This document shows positions 3,016 to 58,918 of a DNA stretch of 64,000 nt, in pieces. Under the pieces are notes generated by a model. The model was not told where the DNA came from. It was given only the letters and a program-made list of their open reading frames with translations, and searched no databases. The translations under genes and the position numbers were made by a program. The stretch lies in the sequence record LC739533.1. One strand, written 5' to 3'. Position 1 is the first letter of the stretch. Each line of letters starts with the position of its first letter. This stretch comes from Escherichia phage phiWec179.

Positions 3016-3040
3016 AAAAAGGGGCCGAAGCCCCTTTCTT
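3015..3040. terminator. Bidirectional rho-independent terminator between convergent genes
   Basis: A-run, GGGGC-CGAA-GCCCC hairpin, T-run; reads as terminator on both strands. Confidence 0.6.
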
Positions 3041-4994
3041 AGTTACCACCAGATTGTCCACTTAAAGTAGCTAAAGTTAAACGGTTGAAAACATTGTTAC
3101 CACTGTTCTGAATACGAGCATCCAACATATTACCAAACTCCGAAGACGGGTTGATTGTTACGTTGATCAGATCACTCGGAATAGCAATCGTGTTTTCTAC
3201 AATAGGTTGGTTACGAGCCAGATTAACGTTTGGCGTATAAGCTGTTTCACGCAAATTCTCTAAAGGATTCCCGAAACCGAAAGCATGTGTTCGAGTTTCT
3301 TCTCCTCGGAACATTCTTCCAACGTCTTGAGTATCAATTCCAGTCCACTTATAAAGGAAGTCGGCTACTGGGTTGGTATCTCCTGATTGTGTTGCGGCGT
3401 ACAATTTGTCCGGTATAGTTTTATTAGGATCAGAATCCGGTCCGAAGATAGATGGTAAGTTTGTCACTAACCATTTATTAATATCTTCCGTGATACCGAT
3501 AATCTCTGTACCAAACTTAGCAACATTCAGTGTGGCATTTGCAAACTCCACCCCAAGATTCTTGGCAAAATTGTCCAAAGATTTAACGTTATCTAACCAA
3601 GATTCGTCTTTAGGTATTGCACTCATAAATCCTTCCAGGAAATAGTTCTGCATCCCTTGACCAACCAAACCTATTGTTGCAGTTAAACGTGTGTACTGTT
3701 TAGAAGCTTCCATTTGCTCATTAGTCAATGCAGCACCAGTACGTTGAAGCATACGGAGGGTTTCTTGGAAGCCTTCTCCGTTCTTGCTAAACATACGTTG
3801 GTAATGCATGAGGTCATCTCCAAGGTTCTCAAGAAGACGACCAATCTGTGCCGAGTTCATGCCGCGACGCTCACCTTCATTCACAGTTGCCTGGATGAAA
3901 GCTAACGGATCGTTCTGCATGTGCTTAATTTGCGAAGGGTTCCAGCCGAACATGTTCATGATATCGTTGATACCGTTGTCCCCGCCACGCCATTTTCCTT
4001 TCTTCTCGTCCCATTCAGAAGCCATCATCGAGTTACCTAAACGTTCACGAACGTCTTTAAGGTTATCGATTGACTTGATAATGTTTGCCGAGTCAACACC
4101 GTTCTGTTCACCCCAAGCAGTCATTGTCATAATGGCGTTGGCGTTTGCCTGAACGTTCTCTGCACCACGACCTACAAACTTGATACGATCATTAGCATTT
4201 TGCAAAGTGTTCCCTACAACAGAGCCACCTGCAAATAACCCTGCACCGATCATAGAAGAAACCATCATACGAGGGTTAAGACCTAAAGCACCATCTCGCA
4301 TTTGGGAATACTTACGTTCCTTATCTCGACGTTGTTGTGCCAATTCTCGTTTATGGTTACGTTCAATATCGCGCAACTCTTTATCACGCATACGTTGACG
4401 TTGCTTGGCTTCTGCTTCCAGTTCTCGACGAATCCTACGGCGACCACGAACCTCATCCTCAATATCTTTCGTTTTTTCTCTGTGGGATTTACGAAGGTTA
4501 TCAAGCTGATGGGCCAGAGTTTGGTTCATACGTTGAAGAGTGATATCTCCACGTTTGTATGATTCTACAGAGGCATCCATGATTTGTTTTGCTTGGCGTT
4601 GTGCATCTATGGAAGCTTTGGTATATTGCATACCACGCTTCTCAAAATTCTCCATGCGGAGGTTGCCTAAATCGTTACGACGAGCTTGGAGTTCTGCTGC
4701 GCGTTCTTCTGGTGTTTTCTTACCTGGTTTCGTTGGACGACCAGGACCGGAGGTAGTTCCACCACCTTTTGGAGCAGAAGGGGGAGCAGGGCGAGCAGGG
4801 AAAGTCTGCGCTTTACGCATTTCTCTTTCGATCTCTTTCATCTGCTGCCTAAATTTACTCATGTTTAAGGTAGGTTGGATTTTTTCAGCGAACCTTTTAA
4901 TACTTTCGACAGAATCTTTGGCCTCTTTGAGACTGTTCTTGTCCACCTTAAATGTGACTACGTTACTGATTTTTGAGGCATTAATATCTAACAA
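3039..4994 (-). CDS. Tail tape measure protein (tentative)
   Basis: 651 aa, long charged coiled-coil region (REK-rich), Gly/Ala-rich segment; sits immediately downstream of frameshifted chaperone pair. Confidence 0.45.
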   Translation of the reverse strand: MLDINASKISNVVTFKVDKNSLKEAKDSVESIKRFAEKIQPTLNMSKFRQQMKEIEREMRKAQTFPARPAPPSAPKGGGTTSGPGRPTKPGKKTPEERAAELQARRNDLGNLRMENFEKRGMQYTKASIDAQRQAKQIMDASVESYKRGDITLQRMNQTLAHQLDNLRKSHREKTKDIEDEVRGRRRIRRELEAEAKQRQRMRDKELRDIERNHKRELAQQRRDKERKYSQMRDGALGLNPRMMVSSMIGAGLFAGGSVVGNTLQNANDRIKFVGRGAENVQANANAIMTMTAWGEQNGVDSANIIKSIDNLKDVRERLGNSMMASEWDEKKGKWRGGDNGINDIMNMFGWNPSQIKHMQNDPLAFIQATVNEGERRGMNSAQIGRLLENLGDDLMHYQRMFSKNGEGFQETLRMLQRTGAALTNEQMEASKQYTRLTATIGLVGQGMQNYFLEGFMSAIPKDESWLDNVKSLDNFAKNLGVEFANATLNVAKFGTEIIGITEDINKWLVTNLPSIFGPDSDPNKTIPDKLYAATQSGDTNPVADFLYKWTGIDTQDVGRMFRGEETRTHAFGFGNPLENLRETAYTPNVNLARNQPIVENTIAIPSDLINVTINPSSEFGNMLDARIQNSGNNVFNRLTLATLSGQSGGN

Positions 4995-52143: not shown

Positions 52144-52722
52144 ATGAGCAACCTATTTTACACAGGCGTGGGAAGTCGAGAGATAACCCACGAAGAATGG
52201 GATTTAATGGTCGCTGTAGCAAAGTGGTTGGCTAACTGTGGTTTTACTTTACGTTCAGGTAATGCAAACGGTAGTGACTCTGCTTTCGAAACAGGTGTGG
52301 AAGAATCCAAAAACAAATCTCTCAAGGAGATTTATATCCCTTGGGAGAAGTTTGAAGGCAATGATATTCCAGGTGAGAAAATAGTTCTTGCTAAACCTGA
52401 CAGTATGAACTATGCTATCAGTCTCCAGTGGATAAAGGATATTCATCCGGCATTTGATAAATTGAAACAAGGTGCACGTAAATTGCATCAACGTAACGTT
52501 CATCAGGTGTTGGGACAAGATCTGGAGCATCCAATTCCTTCTTTGTTTTTACTGGCTTGTTCCAAAGAAGATAAGAAGGGAGACGTTATGGGTGGAACAC
52601 GGACGGCGTGGCTCATCGCTAAAGCTAATAACGTTCCATGTTTTAACTTACGTGGTAAAACAAAGGAAGAACTTTATGCTTTTCTTAAACCGTTGGTCAA
52701 GGGGGCAATCAGTGGCAATTAA
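52144..52722 (+). CDS. SLOG / DprA(Smf)-like Rossmann-fold protein
   Basis: GVGSR ... LRSGNANGSDSAFETG ... HQRN ... GGTRTAWLIAKANNVPCF matches DprA/SLOG pattern; start set to ATG 52144. Confidence 0.45.
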   Translation: MSNLFYTGVGSREITHEEWDLMVAVAKWLANCGFTLRSGNANGSDSAFETGVEESKNKSLKEIYIPWEKFEGNDIPGEKIVLAKPDSMNYAISLQWIKDIHPAFDKLKQGARKLHQRNVHQVLGQDLEHPIPSLFLLACSKEDKKGDVMGGTRTAWLIAKANNVPCFNLRGKTKEELYAFLKPLVKGAISGN

Positions 52723-53236: not shown

Positions 53237-53513
53237 TGAAGTGAAAAGTTACGAAAGCAATTTCGTAAGCAATTGGGAAGCATGGGATGAGATGGGTGTT
53301 GGTGAACTCTATTTCTACAATGTAACCCTTCGTCCAGAATATCAACATCTCATTCCAGAAGGCACTGTGCAGATCGGTATGTTCATGTCTTCTCAAGACG
53401 GTGTTGTGCAGTTTGAGTTTTACTCTGACACAGAACAGAACGAATTCACTTATCGTGCATTCAATATCGTATTAGCTTTAGGAGAGGAGAAATTTTATGA
53501 CGACGAAGTATAA
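53223..53513 (+). CDS. Hypothetical protein
   Basis: Start set to ATG 53223 after RBS GAGGAGGAAG. Confidence 0.4.
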   Translation: MAEFNEVKSYESNFVSNWEAWDEMGVGELYFYNVTLRPEYQHLIPEGTVQIGMFMSSQDGVVQFEFYSDTEQNEFTYRAFNIVLALGEEKFYDDEV

Positions 53514-53694
53514 AACAGTAGCAGAAGCACTGAAAGCAGCACACGAAGCCATTGCAGAAGCTGAACAATTGGCTGATGAAACTGGCACAAGTTTTCACTT
53601 CTCTGTTGAATATGGGATGGGTGGTACTTATGACCCAGAAGATGAGAACGAATACACTGGGACCAACTGGCACCCATCTTCCCTCGGTTGTTAA
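53497..53694 (+). CDS. Small Cys-terminated protein, paralogue 1
   Basis: N-terminal alanine-rich helix, Gly/Tyr/acidic core, C-terminal W-x-P-SS-x-x-C. Confidence 0.45.
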   Translation: MTTKYKTVAEALKAAHEAIAEAEQLADETGTSFHFSVEYGMGGTYDPEDENEYTGTNWHPSSLGC

Positions 53695-53708
53695 TAAGGA
53701 GAAATAAA

Positions 53709-53927
53709 ATGAGTGATCGTAATGCACAAGCATTAGCAGACAAAGCAAAAGAAATCATGAAGCTTGTGGATGCACTGGCAGCAGAAGCAGAAAAGGAAGG
53801 TTTCGGTCTTAGCTTAGAAAACAATACAATCTGTTTTGAAGATTGGCAGTCTTCTGCTTGCTATGGCGAAGCTGATGATGGTTTCACCGTTGACTCTGAC
53901 GGTGTTTGGTATAGCAGTAATTGTTAA
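53709..53927 (+). CDS. Small Cys-terminated protein, paralogue 2
   Basis: Same architecture as 53497-53694; ends ...VWYSSNC. Confidence 0.45.
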   Translation: MSDRNAQALADKAKEIMKLVDALAAEAEKEGFGLSLENNTICFEDWQSSACYGEADDGFTVDSDGVWYSSNC

Positions 53928-53936
53928 GGAGGGATC

Positions 53937-54206
53937 ATGTCAGAAGGTAGTGCCTTAATCAAGGCAAAAGTTAAAGAGATGGAAGAATCACAACAGAAGT
54001 TCCGCAACGAGATTGAAGAGCTTTGTGAGCAGTTCCAAGAACAAGCGTGGATCGGTGATTACGGGAATGGGGAAACTTACTACCCAACAGGAACAAACGC
54101 AGAAGAACATTATCTCACCTATATCTGCGGAGACTATGATATTGAGATTGACGAAAACGGTCTGATGACCGAAGGTCTTTGGGTGTCTTCCTCGGAAATG
54201 TGCTAA
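53937..54206 (+). CDS. Small Cys-terminated protein, paralogue 3
   Basis: Same architecture; ends ...LWVSSSEMC; followed by strong terminator. Confidence 0.45.
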   Translation: MSEGSALIKAKVKEMEESQQKFRNEIEELCEQFQEQAWIGDYGNGETYYPTGTNAEEHYLTYICGDYDIEIDENGLMTEGLWVSSSEMC

Positions 54207-54214
54207 TAAATAAT

Positions 54215-54238
54215 AACCCGCTTCGGCGGGTTTTTTAT
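54215..54238 (+). terminator. Rho-independent terminator
   Basis: CCCGC-TTCG-GCGGG followed by TTTTTTATT. Confidence 0.7.
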
Positions 54239-54247
54239 TGTGTGAGT

Positions 54248-54276
54248 GTTGACAAGACACGAAGAACCTGGTAGAC
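54248..54276 (+). promoter_or_regulatory. Sigma70-like promoter
   Basis: TTGACA -35, 17-nt spacer, TAGACT -10. Confidence 0.5.
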
Positions 54277-54305
54277 TTGTCTCATCAACTAAGAGAGGAG
54301 GATAT

Positions 54306-55244
54306 ATGAAAGTATTAATCGGTAGTCGTGCGTTGGAAATGATTTGTCGTTCTCGTGGTGTAGAACTGTATCGTGCTTGCGTAGATCTGGATTACCTCTG
54401 CACTGAAGAAGAGTGGCAAGCAGAAGCCCAGAAATTCTCGAAAGATCGTTTCGTAGAAATTGTTGAACGTAAAGGTAACAAAGGGCATATCAAAATGATC
54501 GCGGGCGCTCATCTGGAATATGATATTGCACAACCAGGCGACTCTACAGATGCTTTGATTCAATACATCAAAGAGAATGCAGATCATCTGCCGCGTATTG
54601 GTTATGATGTGGTCGCGCCTTTGGATGTTTTATACCTTCTGAAGATGAGTCACCGTTTTAAGAAGGACAGTCCTCACTTCCTGAAAACAATGAAGGATAT
54701 CCACTTCATGCGTAACCTTGGAGCGAAGATCCCTGAAGAGTTGGAAGATACATACAAACTGCGTCAGAAGGAGTCCTATAATTACGGGCACCCTAATCTG
54801 AACGTGAAAAGTAAAGATTTCTTCAAGGGTGATGAAGTGCCTTATGTGTATGATCACGATAGCCTGCACAGAGTTTTAGCTGTAATGGAGGAACCAGCTT
54901 ACACGAACTACCTAAAGGATGGTAACGAGGTAATGACAAGTAAAGATAAGTTCTATGCTGTTGACGAAACTACCAGATTGCTTGGGGTGTTAGAGGAGAG
55001 TTTGGTTCTGGCTTCGGAAAGGTGTCTAATACCTTTCAACTACAGTGTTACAGGGAAGAAGGCATTTCTTATGGCTTTGACTAAAGTTTGCACTTCTATC
55101 ACATCGGGCTACTTTCGAGAATATGCTTATGAAAAGTTCTTCCTTGTGTGTAAGGTATACGATAATATGTATCCTAACGACGAGTGGGTGGATACGTTAA
55201 GACAAGCCATAGATAAGGGGGCTGTTGATGTATATAAAGCATAA
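54306..55244 (+). CDS. Hypothetical protein, possible nucleotidyltransferase fold
   Basis: N-terminal LIGSRALEM ... CVDLDYL loosely resembles the GS...DxD signature of Pol-beta-type nucleotidyltransferases; weak. Confidence 0.3.
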   Translation: MKVLIGSRALEMICRSRGVELYRACVDLDYLCTEEEWQAEAQKFSKDRFVEIVERKGNKGHIKMIAGAHLEYDIAQPGDSTDALIQYIKENADHLPRIGYDVVAPLDVLYLLKMSHRFKKDSPHFLKTMKDIHFMRNLGAKIPEELEDTYKLRQKESYNYGHPNLNVKSKDFFKGDEVPYVYDHDSLHRVLAVMEEPAYTNYLKDGNEVMTSKDKFYAVDETTRLLGVLEESLVLASERCLIPFNYSVTGKKAFLMALTKVCTSITSGYFREYAYEKFFLVCKVYDNMYPNDEWVDTLRQAIDKGAVDVYKA

Positions 55245-55839
55245 ATATTTAGGAATCACAGACGAAGACTCCAAAGATGGAGAATTCGTCTACACGATCA
55301 CAGCAGCGAATGGATACTACCAGACCCGTATAGGGGGTTTATGGAGAGCTTTAAATGCGCGGGTAGGTAAGGGATCATACACAAACGTATGTGTAGATTT
55401 TAAAGATTTCAAAGAGTTTGCCGAGAGTGTAACAATATTAGCCAATTATAAAACATTAGATAGTTATGGGAACCACTATCACTTAGATAAAGACTTAAAA
55501 TGTTACAAGAAGGATAAATCTTACAACAAAGATTCAGTGCTGTTTATCCCTGGGCACTTAAATACCGCCTTGAAAGGTGTGATCCCTTACTTGGAGTGTG
55601 GGGCTACTTGTGGAGTCAGTTTTAGTAAGATTCGGAATAAGTTTCGAGCCTACTGTAATGATGGCGGTAGTAGACAGATACATTTAGGGTACTTCGAAAG
55701 TAAAGAAGCTGCTCAAAAAGCTTGGGTATTGGAGAAGATAAATCAAATAAAACGTTCCTTAATCAAAGAGAACATCTCGGACGAAGATATTTTGTATTTT
55801 ACGGGTGTTTTGATAAGCGATTTAGAAGGAGGTTATTGA
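55228..55839 (+). CDS. HNH homing endonuclease-like protein with AP2-like domain
   Basis: GNHYHLDKD ... N ... PGHLN HNH-like core plus FRAYCNDGGSRQIHLGYFESKEAAQKAW AP2-type element. Confidence 0.45.
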   Translation: MYIKHKYLGITDEDSKDGEFVYTITAANGYYQTRIGGLWRALNARVGKGSYTNVCVDFKDFKEFAESVTILANYKTLDSYGNHYHLDKDLKCYKKDKSYNKDSVLFIPGHLNTALKGVIPYLECGATCGVSFSKIRNKFRAYCNDGGSRQIHLGYFESKEAAQKAWVLEKINQIKRSLIKENISDEDILYFTGVLISDLEGGY

Positions 55840-55840
55840 T

Positions 55841-56239
55841 ATGGGTTGGTGTGATCAGTCACAAAGTTACTTCAAAGTGACACATGTGGATCTCAACAAG
55901 GCAAGAGTGAAGCTGTTGAGTATTGAAAAAGAAACAGCAGCTATTGACAAACGCCTCCGAGAGAGTAAAGTGGTAATCACTTCTTGGTTCGGACTGAAAC
56001 GTAAAGTCCTCACGCAGCGAGAGCATGTAATTAAAAATATGCATGGTTGGGCTTGGTTCCACGACATGGCAAAACACCTGGGGTACATTTCTACTGAAGA
56101 ACACGACCTCTTGGAGCTACGTTATCGCCTTCCAGATGTAGAAGATTTAGATTTGTGGATCAGTTCCGAACAAATCTTCTTAACCGAGAGCGATTGGAAG
56201 AAAGTCAATATTTGTCTTAAATGGAGGGAGAATGAGTAA
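55841..56239 (+). CDS. Hypothetical protein
   Basis: 132 aa; coupled start. Confidence 0.45.
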   Translation: MGWCDQSQSYFKVTHVDLNKARVKLLSIEKETAAIDKRLRESKVVITSWFGLKRKVLTQREHVIKNMHGWAWFHDMAKHLGYISTEEHDLLELRYRLPDVEDLDLWISSEQIFLTESDWKKVNICLKWRENE

Positions 56240-56915
56240 AGTAGTTTTATCAACATTTGATGGATCTGGGATCATGGTACTTCGTTACGCAGAAGCGGGA
56301 CATAAATGCTATTGTGTAAATGCTGACGAAGGTGATCACGGGGCTTATGAAGTTCGCATGGAACATCCTAACATCACTTACGTGAACGCATGGATTGATT
56401 CCAACTTCAACCCTGAAGATTACGGTATTCCTAAGCCAGATATTATCTTTGGCTTCCCTCCATGTACCATGCTTGCTGGTTGCGGTAGTAAGCACGAACG
56501 TAGCGCAGAAGAGTTGGAAGAAGCTTTGGCTAACATTCGTATCGTGGAAGCTTTAGGAAATAAATACAACGTTCCGTGGATGATTGAGAATCCGGTGGGT
56601 AAACTGTCAACATTGTGGCGTAAACCGGATTTCTATTTCGATCCTTACGAATATGGCGGATATCTGTTTGATGAAGAAGGCAGCTTCCACCCTAAAATGC
56701 CTACCCGTGACGGTTACACAAAGAAAACCTGTATTTGGCATGGCAATGGTTTTGTTAAGCCTGTGAAGAAGCCTGTGGAACATATTGGTTGCTTCTGGGG
56801 CTGGAAAAGTTTAGGCGGAGCAAGTGCGAAAACAAAGCAACTCCGATCGTTAACTGCTCGCGGTTTTGCTCGTGCTGTGTTTTTATCTAACAACCTTTTA
56901 GATAAGGAGGAATGA
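56232..56915 (+). CDS. DNA cytosine-5 methyltransferase-like protein (compact)
   Basis: Motif I-like FDGSG, motif IV GFPPCT (Pro-Cys), motif VI ENPVG, in canonical order. Confidence 0.5.
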   Translation: MSKVVLSTFDGSGIMVLRYAEAGHKCYCVNADEGDHGAYEVRMEHPNITYVNAWIDSNFNPEDYGIPKPDIIFGFPPCTMLAGCGSKHERSAEELEEALANIRIVEALGNKYNVPWMIENPVGKLSTLWRKPDFYFDPYEYGGYLFDEEGSFHPKMPTRDGYTKKTCIWHGNGFVKPVKKPVEHIGCFWGWKSLGGASAKTKQLRSLTARGFARAVFLSNNLLDKEE

Positions 56916-57580
56916 TGACCCATTTAAAACCTTTTGGTGGAAAACCTATTGTGGCGTATCAAGTAGATCGTGATGATTGGGAAGGCAGTGTAGTTGTCTT
57001 TGGTAATCATTTCTTTGCTGTGCGTCGTAAAGGCGCAAGCATGTTAGATTGTGAGGAGGAGTATTGTCATGTCTCCCGTGCCAAAGAATTCGACCAGTAT
57101 GTAGAAAAAGGTTTTGTGCCTGTCAAAGCTTTACTGGAGGCAGGATGGTGGATACACTCTGCTCATGATGGTGTTAGACTTGACGAGTCTGTAGATAGTC
57201 TTGAGGCAGATTTTGACGAATGTGAAGATGGCATGTATATTGAGGGGGATCTTGTATTTTCCCTTGACGAGAAAAGTGTGTGGAAGAACTGGGAAGAAAT
57301 GGAACGTCACGCGCATTTTATCAATGATGCTTTGATTCGTAAAGCTTGGTTCACGGAGGCGGTGAAGGTAGCGTATCCGCAATTCACCTTTACAGAGGTT
57401 TGGGGCGGTCCACACCACATCACCCATACAGCATTTTTCGACTTCCCTGGTTCACGTTACAAAGGTAATGTAATGTGGGACTGGGATGAGAATGAAGTAC
57501 CATCTGTTCAAGACTTTCGTTGTTATGTTTGCCAAGGCGATCAAGAAGCCCTTGACAAATACCTGCAAAGTCTGGTATAG
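56912..57580 (+). CDS. Hypothetical protein
   Basis: 222 aa; ATGA-coupled. Confidence 0.45.
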   Translation: MMTHLKPFGGKPIVAYQVDRDDWEGSVVVFGNHFFAVRRKGASMLDCEEEYCHVSRAKEFDQYVEKGFVPVKALLEAGWWIHSAHDGVRLDESVDSLEADFDECEDGMYIEGDLVFSLDEKSVWKNWEEMERHAHFINDALIRKAWFTEAVKVAYPQFTFTEVWGGPHHITHTAFFDFPGSRYKGNVMWDWDENEVPSVQDFRCYVCQGDQEALDKYLQSLV

Positions 57581-57597
57581 TGCCAGCATCTGAACAA

Positions 57598-57625
57598 AGC
57601 CTCCTGCTTCAGGGGGCTTTTCTTT
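57598..57625 (+). terminator. Rho-independent terminator
   Basis: AGCCTCC-TGCTTCA-GGGGGCT followed by TTTCTTTT. Confidence 0.55.
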
Positions 57626-57638
57626 TATGGGAGGAAAT

Positions 57639-58133
57639 ATGTTTCAAGTAGAAATTCATGTGCACAACAGTTGTTCAAATTGCGAAACTTGTGGTTACAA
57701 TAGTTCAACCATGATCACTGTTAGCGGAGACTTAGGACATGCCAAGTTTGGCGAAGTCGCAAGCTGCTTCAGCGGAGAGGATGCAGATTGGCATGATATT
57801 GCTTTGTGGCTATGCGGAAGACTGAATGTAAATTGTAAAGACTTCCCTGAACTGTTGAGCCGAAATCTTATTGATAGTCGGGAACAAGCCTACAATATTT
57901 ATGCCGCTTCTGTTTATGTTGATCATAAATGGGTAGAAGATGAAGAAGCTGAACGTTTGCTGCGCCTCTACTACGAAGCAGAGGAAGCTTATGATAACTA
58001 TTATAGCATGTCCAACATTCTACGCTTGTTTGCAGAGTTTGATATTTACTTTGAAGTGAGTTATTCTGAAGAGGAAGTGTATGATTTTGATGACGATGAT
58101 TACGAGGAGGATGAAGAATGCCAAGACGATTAA
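57639..58133 (+). CDS. Hypothetical Cys-containing acidic protein
   Basis: Start set to ATG 57639 after RBS GGGAGGAAA; C-terminal poly-acidic tail. Confidence 0.4.
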   Translation: MFQVEIHVHNSCSNCETCGYNSSTMITVSGDLGHAKFGEVASCFSGEDADWHDIALWLCGRLNVNCKDFPELLSRNLIDSREQAYNIYAASVYVDHKWVEDEEAERLLRLYYEAEEAYDNYYSMSNILRLFAEFDIYFEVSYSEEEVYDFDDDDYEEDEECQDD

Positions 58134-58918
58134 TAGTGATCAGCGGTGCTGGTCTAAGCGCCGATAGCGGTGTACGTACTTTCCGCACTGATACAGATAG
58201 CGGGAAAGCTTTGTGGGATGAATACGACCTTTCTGAAGTGTGCGATATTTTCAATTTCCGTGCTGGCTACCAGCAAGAACAATGTGTTCCTGGCGCTGCT
58301 GGTGGATTAGATGCAGAGGGATACAACCTCTACCGTAAAACTCACGACTTCTACAATAAACGTCGCGTAGAGATGGATAGTGTGTCTCCTAACGCTGCGC
58401 ATTACCAGATCGCAGAGTGGTTCCAAGAGTACGGCTGCGATCGTGTTATCAACATCACAACAAACGTAGATGATCTTCTGGAACAAGCAGGGGTTGTTCA
58501 TGAAGATGTTCTGCATGTTCACGGCTTCCTGCCTGAAGTGATTGTAGACAATAGAATCATCAAGGATGTTGGTTATGCTGCTATTGATGTAGATGATTAC
58601 AAGTATGTGAAGCCCAATGTAGTGTTCTTTGGGGAGACTGCCCCACTGTATAACGATATGTACCACATCTTAGACGGCTTGACGGCTCAAGATATGGTGG
58701 TTGTAGTGGGCTGCTCTAATCAAGTGATCAACTTCAACTGGGATTTGTTCCCAGCCCTCAACATAGGAACAAAGATGGTCGTAGTTAATCCTGGGGTTAA
58801 TTACGAAGAAACACTTCTCTATGAAGATCGTGGAGTTTTTGTTTACCGAGAAAAAGCTGCAACAGCCTTCAGTAATGAAGGTTTCATTAAAATGATCGAA
58901 GACCACTTAAACAAATAA
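58118..58918 (+). CDS. Sir2-family (sirtuin-like) NAD-dependent protein
   Basis: ISGAGLSADSGVRTFR, VLHVHG, VVFFGE; no obvious Zn-binding Cys tetrad. Confidence 0.6.
   Translation: MPRRLIVISGAGLSADSGVRTFRTDTDSGKALWDEYDLSEVCDIFNFRAGYQQEQCVPGAAGGLDAEGYNLYRKTHDFYNKRRVEMDSVSPNAAHYQIAEWFQEYGCDRVINITTNVDDLLEQAGVVHEDVLHVHGFLPEVIVDNRIIKDVGYAAIDVDDYKYVKPNVVFFGETAPLYNDMYHILDGLTAQDMVVVVGCSNQVINFNWDLFPALNIGTKMVVVNPGVNYEETLLYEDRGVFVYREKAATAFSNEGFIKMIEDHLNK

Follow-up and report, generated by a model that had tools for sequence, protein, structure and literature searches.

A putative free-standing homing endonuclease gene of the IPA-HNH class next to a DUF7275 gene in Escherichia phage phiWec179

The locus and its junctions

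The 64,000-nt stretch of Escherichia phage phiWec179 analysed here (sequence record LC739533.1; this whole stretch is called the window and all positions refer to it unless another genome is named) contains an open reading frame (ORF) at 55228-55839 on the plus strand, with ATG at 55228 and TGA at 55837-55839, which encodes a protein of 203 amino acids (aa) and appears to represent a homing endonuclease gene (HEG) of the free-standing type that belongs to the IPA-HNH class. An initial annotation, made from the sequence alone, had described the ORF as an HNH endonuclease with an AP2-type DNA-binding element. The ORF is real and lies exactly where that annotation had placed it, and it coincides with the annotated coding sequence BDU12317.1, a "hypothetical protein" in the GenBank record of phiWec181. 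Escherichia phages phiWec181 and phiWec186 (Phapecoctavirus, Stephanstirmvirinae) match the window with 100% identity over 53500-58000. A Shine-Dalgarno-like AAGGGGG is found at 55215-55221, 6 nt 5' of the ATG of the HEG.

The genes around the HEG form a densely packed series on the same strand. The upstream gene (54306-55244, plus strand, 312 aa) encodes DUF7277 and DUF7275 domains (Pfam E = 9.3e-9 and E = 1.3e-67, respectively) and is referred to below as the DUF7275 gene; its end at 55244 overlaps the HEG start by 17 nt. A downstream gene of 132 aa (55841-56239, plus strand), which is 97-100% identical to its counterpart in phage phiWec188 and lies outside the mobile unit as judged from this identity, begins one base past the HEG stop.

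Presence of the HEG was examined in 50,697 phage records and only phiWec181 and phiWec186 carried it at a protein identity of at least 60%. It was missing in phiWec188, phiWec190 and PsgM04F, which are 96.6% identical across the region, and it was also missing in the phAPEC8-type phages. In both phiWec188 and phAPEC8 the DUF7275 gene directly abuts the 132-aa gene, and a 401-nt probe spanning the empty phAPEC8 junction was found uninterrupted in 62 records. The mobile insertion that the initial annotation had suggested is therefore supported by the absence of the gene from phages that are 96.6% identical and by the 62 intact empty sites, and the comparison of synteny with relatives gave the opposite of a gene that is universally present at a site without flanking polymorphism.

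The identity to phiWec188 was 100% up to 54861, about 55-60% at the nucleotide level over 54862-55227 and 97-100% from 55825 onwards, and across the HEG ORF it was effectively nil (0-40%, spurious values from a mostly gapped alignment). The left recombination junction was placed by pairwise alignment at 54839-54861 (plus strand), the last stretch identical to phiWec188, which contains conserved PYVYDHD codons. The segment that follows (54862-55227, plus strand) would be an imported, co-converted 3' third of the DUF7275 gene and represents a HEG-linked allele. At the protein level, residues 1-194 of the DUF7275 protein were 95% identical to phiWec188, whereas residues 195-312 were 54% identical to phiWec188 and 69-71% identical to the HEG-carrying contigs L008 and L010. 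Judged from these alignments the DUF7275 gene is a chimera, and it is presumed to be the target gene of the endonuclease.

The right junction, GAAGGAGGTTATTGA at 55825-55839 (plus strand), was identified in alignments with phiWec188 and phAPEC8 and consists of the last four codons (EGGY) and the stop codon of the ancestral, HEG-less DUF7275 gene. That gene ends in KPYEGGY followed by the stop, and its EGGY and stop are now read as the C-terminus of the HEG product. Because the HEG ORF ends in ancestral DUF7275 codons, the insertion can be placed a few codons before the old DUF7275 stop. Altogether a block of 963 bp (54862-55824) stands in place of about 377 bp of ancestral sequence, and the new C-terminal tail of the DUF7275 protein, KGAVDVYKA followed by the stop, comes with the imported block, its codons running into the HEG. 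The right junction GAAGGAGGTTATTGA also holds the GGAGG that serves the downstream gene as ribosome-binding site, so that the signals GGAGG...TGATATG are kept. A site of gene conversion had been proposed here, and the flank is indeed polymorphic in the way that co-conversion predicts, with sharp junctions at 54861/54862 and at 55825.

With respect to expression, a terminator-like hairpin at 54215-54232 and a promoter-like site at 54249-54277 (both on the plus strand) were found 5' of the DUF7275 gene in a consensus scan, and in phAPEC8 a terminator is annotated at the position equivalent to the hairpin. The scan gave no comparable terminator-like or promoter-like signal between the DUF7275 gene and the HEG, and since no such signal separates them the two genes are probably co-transcribed. 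The longest mechanical ORF of the DUF7275 gene opens at a GTG at 54246, and the annotated ATG is at 54306. The latter is the likely start, because the starts of all homologues align there (MKVLIGSRAL...) and because the promoter-like site falls inside the longer version.

Further features of the region were observed. The G+C content within the HEG (55250-55700) was 0.37-0.38 compared with 0.41-0.45 in the flanks, which fits, weakly, with a foreign origin. Small dips in the identity to phiWec188 (78-93%, with surroundings of 97-100%) occur at 52420-52599, 53740-53799 and 54520-54639 and may be short gene-conversion tracts. Several near-identical Phapecoctavirus genomes carry odd host labels: PsgM04F, 96.6% identical to the window, is listed as a Pseudomonas phage, Campylobacter phage B15 is about 98% identical to phAPEC8 at the junction and Acinetobacter phage vB_AbaM_ABPW7 groups with the phAPEC8-type phages. 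Such host labels are probably mis-assignments or contaminant phages.

Domains, family and conserved residues of the protein

According to sequence comparison and the structural model the protein has three parts, all encoded on the plus strand: an N-terminal domain with a predicted PacI-like/HNH-like fold (aa 1-127, 55228-55608), an AP2-type DNA-binding domain (aa 129-168, 55612-55731) and a C-terminal helical hairpin (aa 159-201, 55702-55830), which prolongs the AP2 helix and has model helices at 159-181 and 186-201. The protein matched PHROG phrog_953, "HNH endonuclease" (E = 1.6e-25). An exhaustive hidden Markov model (HMM) search from a six-sequence seed recovered a family of ~200-aa proteins with 9128 cluster representatives at E<1e-3, of which 3496 reached E<1e-10, and a family alignment of 99 sequences (the window protein and 98 relatives) was used for the conservation counts given below. 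An HMM search of all six-frame ORFs revealed no second copy of the family in the window.

The Pfam AP2 model matched aa 129-165 with E = 9.7e-4 and 19.8 bits, which is under the gathering score of 33.3. The AP2-like segment of the initial annotation was nevertheless borne out, given that 21/99 family members matched Pfam AP2 at E<0.01 (best 6.9e-8) and that the family profile matched the solved AP2 domain of WRI1 with E = 5e-5. In the model this segment forms a three-stranded sheet packed on a helix, as in solved AP2 domains.

The N-terminal domain was modelled with a pLDDT (predicted local distance difference test) of 90.9 and contains a putative beta-beta-alpha-metal core at 55480-55569 (plus strand, aa 85-114), delimited from the secondary structure of the model and from column conservation: a strand HLD (85-87, with D87 at its end), the DKD motif, an omega-loop with Y99, a strand LFI (105-107) and a helix (109-114) that carries N112. 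Y99 sits in the modelled loop ahead of strand 105-107, and this predicted strand-loop-strand-helix layout corresponds to a beta-beta-alpha arrangement. The residues R45, D87, K88, D89 and N112 were invariant across the family, Y99 was present in 98/99 sequences and C104, F106 and P108 were nearly invariant. H85 and H110 give the segment a local H...N...H look, yet both vary across the family, and the residue that follows the invariant D87 is the invariant lysine K88. From the conservation and the model the nuclease domain is best described as atypical and histidine-less and not as a canonical HNH domain, and we infer nuclease activity with D87, K88, D89 and N112, possibly also Y99, as the catalytic residues.

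The IPA-HNH HEGs were defined from gp59, gp209 and gp115-116 of Vibrio phage ICP1 and are characterized by an N-terminal HNH-like domain that is too divergent for Pfam HNH_3, combined with a C-terminal AP2 domain; they are abundant in Barbaviruses and in Pseudomonas Flaumdraviruses (Barth et al. 2023, PMC10448857). Of the founders, gp59 was used for the comparison, and the 99-sequence profile matched ICP1 gp59 in hhalign with a probability of 99.45% and E = 4.6e-22 over 163 columns. The gp59 alignment includes "YQLDKDII..GNKVYCPEYCRLVPEKIN" and the shared motif is LDKD...GNK.Y..C..VP...N. Based on this profile match the HEG protein is a previously unannotated member of the IPA-HNH class, and the homing-endonuclease architecture of an HNH-like domain plus AP2 put forward in the initial annotation is supported to the same extent, with activity as a presumption.

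The HEG shares with the ICP1 genes a Pfam-invisible, divergent HNH-like N-terminal domain, a C-terminal AP2 domain, the free-standing position and the variable presence. Its nearest annotated phage homologue, gp066 of Flaumdravirus KIL4 (33.5% identity), belongs to a lineage that is rich in the class. It differs in that its identity to gp59 amounts to only 18% in the aligned region and in that the partners of the ICP1 genes are polymerase, ribonucleotide reductase and terminase genes, whereas here the partner is a DUF7275 gene in a Phapecoctavirus host lineage. KIL4, phAPEC8 and phage nepoznato were not found in the supplementary tables of Barth et al. (PMC10448857).

The predicted fold of the N-terminal domain is closest to that of PacI, a restriction enzyme of the HNH type. 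This enzyme is an active nuclease of the HNH / His-Me finger group that has no catalytic histidine and uses an omega-loop tyrosine instead (PMC5714182; PMC3384342). The HEG protein and PacI (PDB 3M7K/3LDY, His-Me finger group 20) both lack the general-base histidine, and Y99 is placed by the model in the loop equivalent to that of the PacI tyrosine, and the two tyrosines may be equivalent. There is, however, no detectable sequence similarity between the two proteins, and a search of PDB sequences with the profile of the N-terminal domain gave no meaningful match, PacI included. PacI is moreover a homodimeric restriction enzyme with two Cys4 zinc sites and an 8-bp recognition site, whereas the protein here has an AP2 domain and its gene behaves like a HEG in genome comparisons. 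The canonical HNH_3 plus AP2 homing endonucleases (I-HmuI-type, PF13392), reportedly described by Magnani et al. in 2004, resemble the HEG in having an N-terminal nuclease and a C-terminal AP2 domain, in being phage-borne and in behaving as homing elements, but their motif is DH...N...N where the HEG family has DKD...Y...N.

When the HEG was compared with its 92.4%-identical homologue in contig L011, 34 synonymous and 12 non-synonymous changes were counted (ratio of non-synonymous to synonymous rates, dN/dS, 0.07). This ratio indicates that the protein is maintained by purifying selection and is not decaying.

Linkage to DUF7275 in other phages

The close homologues of the HEG were all located directly 3' of a DUF7275 gene. 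This was the case for P0001 (94% identity), P0002 (55%), P0003 (49%) and P0005 (34%) as well as for KIL4 gp066. The two genes overlapped by 17 nt in contigs L008, L009, L010 and L011 and by 29 nt in KIL4 as well as in L014, which carries P0005. The more distant family members P0006 and P0007 were not adjacent to DUF7275, and the linkage is therefore limited to a sub-clade with at least about 33% identity. The gene 5' of P0006 (at 3-239 of the metagenome contig L013) is not a DUF7275 gene, yet it ends in ...NLKPYKED and a stop, resembling the HEG-less DUF7275 tails KPYEGGY and KPYKGEQY; this likeness may be a coincidence or a carried-over remnant of a target site.

The gene that follows the HEG was more variable. 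A 238-aa or a 227-aa gene takes this place in L008 and L010, where the 132-aa gene is not adjacent, and a 158-aa gene does so in KIL4; L011 runs into the same 132-aa gene as the window and L014 ends at the HEG. The 227-aa neighbour has the same length as the product of the window gene at 56232-56915, the phAPEC8 counterpart of which is an annotated DNA methyltransferase. The HEG had initially been described as lying between unrelated genes, but this needs correction, since the HEG is specifically linked to the 3' end of the upstream DUF7275 gene in all close homologues.

The HEG-linked DUF7275 alleles share FAVD, G.LEES.VLA and SG(Y/F)FRE and a different C-terminal tail, all of which are lacking in the HEG-less alleles. 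This split in signature residues was seen both in the coliphages and in the Pseudomonas phage pair KIL4 (with HEG) and Kremar (without HEG). In KIL4 (L005, NC_042054, 2070-3621) the HEG ends in KPYKGEQY and a stop, which are the last 8 codons of DUF7275 in Kremar (L006, 2510-3478).

The same site has a second occupant. In phage nepoznato (L003, NC_052658) a different endonuclease-type gene is present at 3040-3713, at the site equivalent to window positions 55244/55825. Its ORF at 3276-3713 encodes 145 aa with an LNRIN...Y..TC.W segment and an AP2 domain and ends in the ancestral tail KVKPYEGGY and stop. An N-terminal fragment is found at about 3043-3125 in another frame, and because of this the gene gives the impression of being frameshifted or in decay; in RefSeq just 3381-3713 is annotated, as 'HNH endonuclease'. 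The insert in DIJ07P2 is of the same length as that of nepoznato, and by this length DIJ07P2 would carry the same second occupant.

Proposed homing and alternative explanations

The profile match to ICP1 gp59, the predicted fold, the few occupied sites and the chimeric flank are most readily explained if the ORF is a selfish, free-standing IPA-HNH HEG that has recently been spread by classical homing, to which we assign a probability of roughly three in four. In a mixed infection with a HEG-less relative, such as phiWec188, the protein would recognize the empty allele by its AP2 domain, with a probable contribution of the hairpin and the N-terminal domain. The target probably lies in the 3' part of the DUF7275 gene, either at the insertion point or no more than a few hundred bp 5' of it. 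The PacI-like domain would then cut the empty allele, and repair of the break from the HEG-carrying genome would copy in the HEG and, by co-conversion, also the ~370 bp of DUF7275 3' end next to it. The carrier genome would be immune, and we propose that it is protected by the divergence of its own DUF7275 3' allele and by the splitting of the site through the insertion. The cassette would supply a new DUF7275 C-terminus and stop, overlapping the HEG start by 17 nt, and the HEG ORF would run into the last four ancestral codons and the stop such that the downstream gene keeps its ribosome-binding site and start. The target and homing as an event are both putative, whereas the genome comparisons themselves show presence and absence among relatives, the chimeric flank and the linkage to DUF7275.

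The T4 genes segG, segF and mobE, the enzymes of which act from a distance, provide a parallel for this behaviour, with SegG, SegF and MobE being encoded by free-standing genes between or next to conserved genes, with co-conversion of the flank and with immunity through polymorphism in the carrier, and the HEG would be alike in these respects as judged from genomes. The T4 enzymes belong to other nuclease families, GIY-YIG or, for Mob, canonical HNH. Cleavage and marker exclusion have been shown by experiment for SegG, SegF and MobE, whereas for the HEG they are inferred.

Several results weigh against homing by a nuclease of this kind. No Pfam HNH model (HNH_3, PF13392, included) matched any of the 99 family members, an NCBIfam scan of the HEG protein gave no match, hence no HNH model, and hhalign of the N-terminal domain against the canonical HNH_3 family (ICP1 gp80 and 32 relatives) gave a probability of 0.75%, i.e. 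no similarity, as did hhalign against a single HNH_3 sequence. Given that profile similarity to HNH was not found, the link to HNH rests on structure and on the HHsearch statement in the literature. The catalytic histidine is not conserved, with position 85 being histidine in 24/99 sequences and otherwise often serine, glutamine, alanine or cysteine. The HNH-like core of the initial annotation consequently stands as a predicted fold and as a match to PHROG 953 but falls as a sequence motif, as H85 and H110 are variable and HNH matches in Pfam and NCBIfam are lacking. When DUF7275 alleles with and without the HEG were aligned by codon, no single candidate target site emerged, and the site could not be pinpointed because the differences between the alleles are spread across the whole DUF7275 3' third. 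Homing by the putative HEGs of ICP1, the founders of the class, is itself experimentally unverified according to Barth et al. (PMC10448857). Lastly, a second mosaic patch at 58170-58760, within a Sir2/cobB-like gene (58118-58918), is about 50-75% identical to phiWec188 with flanks of 97-100% and has no adjacent endonuclease gene, and since HEG-less mosaic patches occur nearby, general recombination alone can make similar chimeras.

The absence of the catalytic histidine throughout the family and of any HNH profile match would both be expected if the gene encoded an HNH-like protein that had been domesticated or had lost catalysis, that only bound DNA (e.g. as a transcriptional repressor or silencer) and that was spread by ordinary recombination, and precedents for such regulators are provided by CapR/CasPR with AP2, by the plant AP2 factors and by SMAD MH1 with its devolved HNH site. 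This explanation is nevertheless unlikely, because the residues that are invariant or nearly so in 99 diverse members (the acidic D87 and D89 together with K88, N112, R45 and Y99) resemble an active site and not a binding surface, because PacI shows that HNH nucleases without the histidine can be active and because the genomic pattern is of the HEG type, with few occupied sites, co-conversion, linkage to DUF7275 that extends to distant phages and occupation of this site by a second HEG. Even less probable is that the HEG is an ordinary accessory gene riding on a recombination patch, with general mosaicism accounting for the chimera and the product having no part in its own spread. The divergent patches relative to phiWec188 in the Sir2 gene and at 53740-53799, neither with an adjacent endonuclease gene, favour such a passenger, but it would not explain why the same family is found at the same DUF7275 end both in rV5-like phages of E. 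coli and in a Flaumdravirus of Pseudomonas while the downstream neighbours differ, nor why nepoznato has, at the identical site, an endonuclease gene that looks unrelated, and the protein moreover belongs to a class recognized as HEGs. A chance ORF or annotation artefact, which has nothing but the label 'hypothetical protein' in its favour, can be regarded as ruled out by the thousands of homologues, the high-confidence fold and the dN/dS of 0.07, to which the Shine-Dalgarno-like site 6 nt upstream may be added.

Beyond homing as such, a more specific and rather speculative proposal is that IPA-HNH represents a PacI-like, histidine-less branch of the His-Me finger nucleases and that the mobile unit comprises, besides the HEG, the 3' third of the target gene. 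According to the former part, cleavage may be started by Y99, or by K88 in the place of the general-base histidine, with D87, D89 and N112 holding the metal. According to the latter, a composite cassette of the HEG and the DUF7275 3' third may have moved between E. coli and Pseudomonas phage lineages, always rebuilding the C-terminus of the target.

The HEG behaves as expected for known IPA-HNH elements, and the findings go slightly beyond the literature with regard to the lack of the catalytic histidine throughout the family, the predicted PacI-like fold in which a loop tyrosine is nearly invariant, the partnership across lineages with DUF7275 3' ends and the natural pair of empty and occupied sites. 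BDU12317.1, so far a "hypothetical protein", gains a putative function and the 963-bp mosaic block in phiWec181 and phiWec186 an explanation. A family that has no conserved catalytic histidine and is most similar to PacI in its predicted fold points to specific residues, and phiWec188 and phiWec181 form a natural pair of empty and occupied genomes which makes homing by IPA-HNH endonucleases directly testable. For the genomics of phage therapy, the locus marks a recombination hotspot in Phapecoctavirus genomes.

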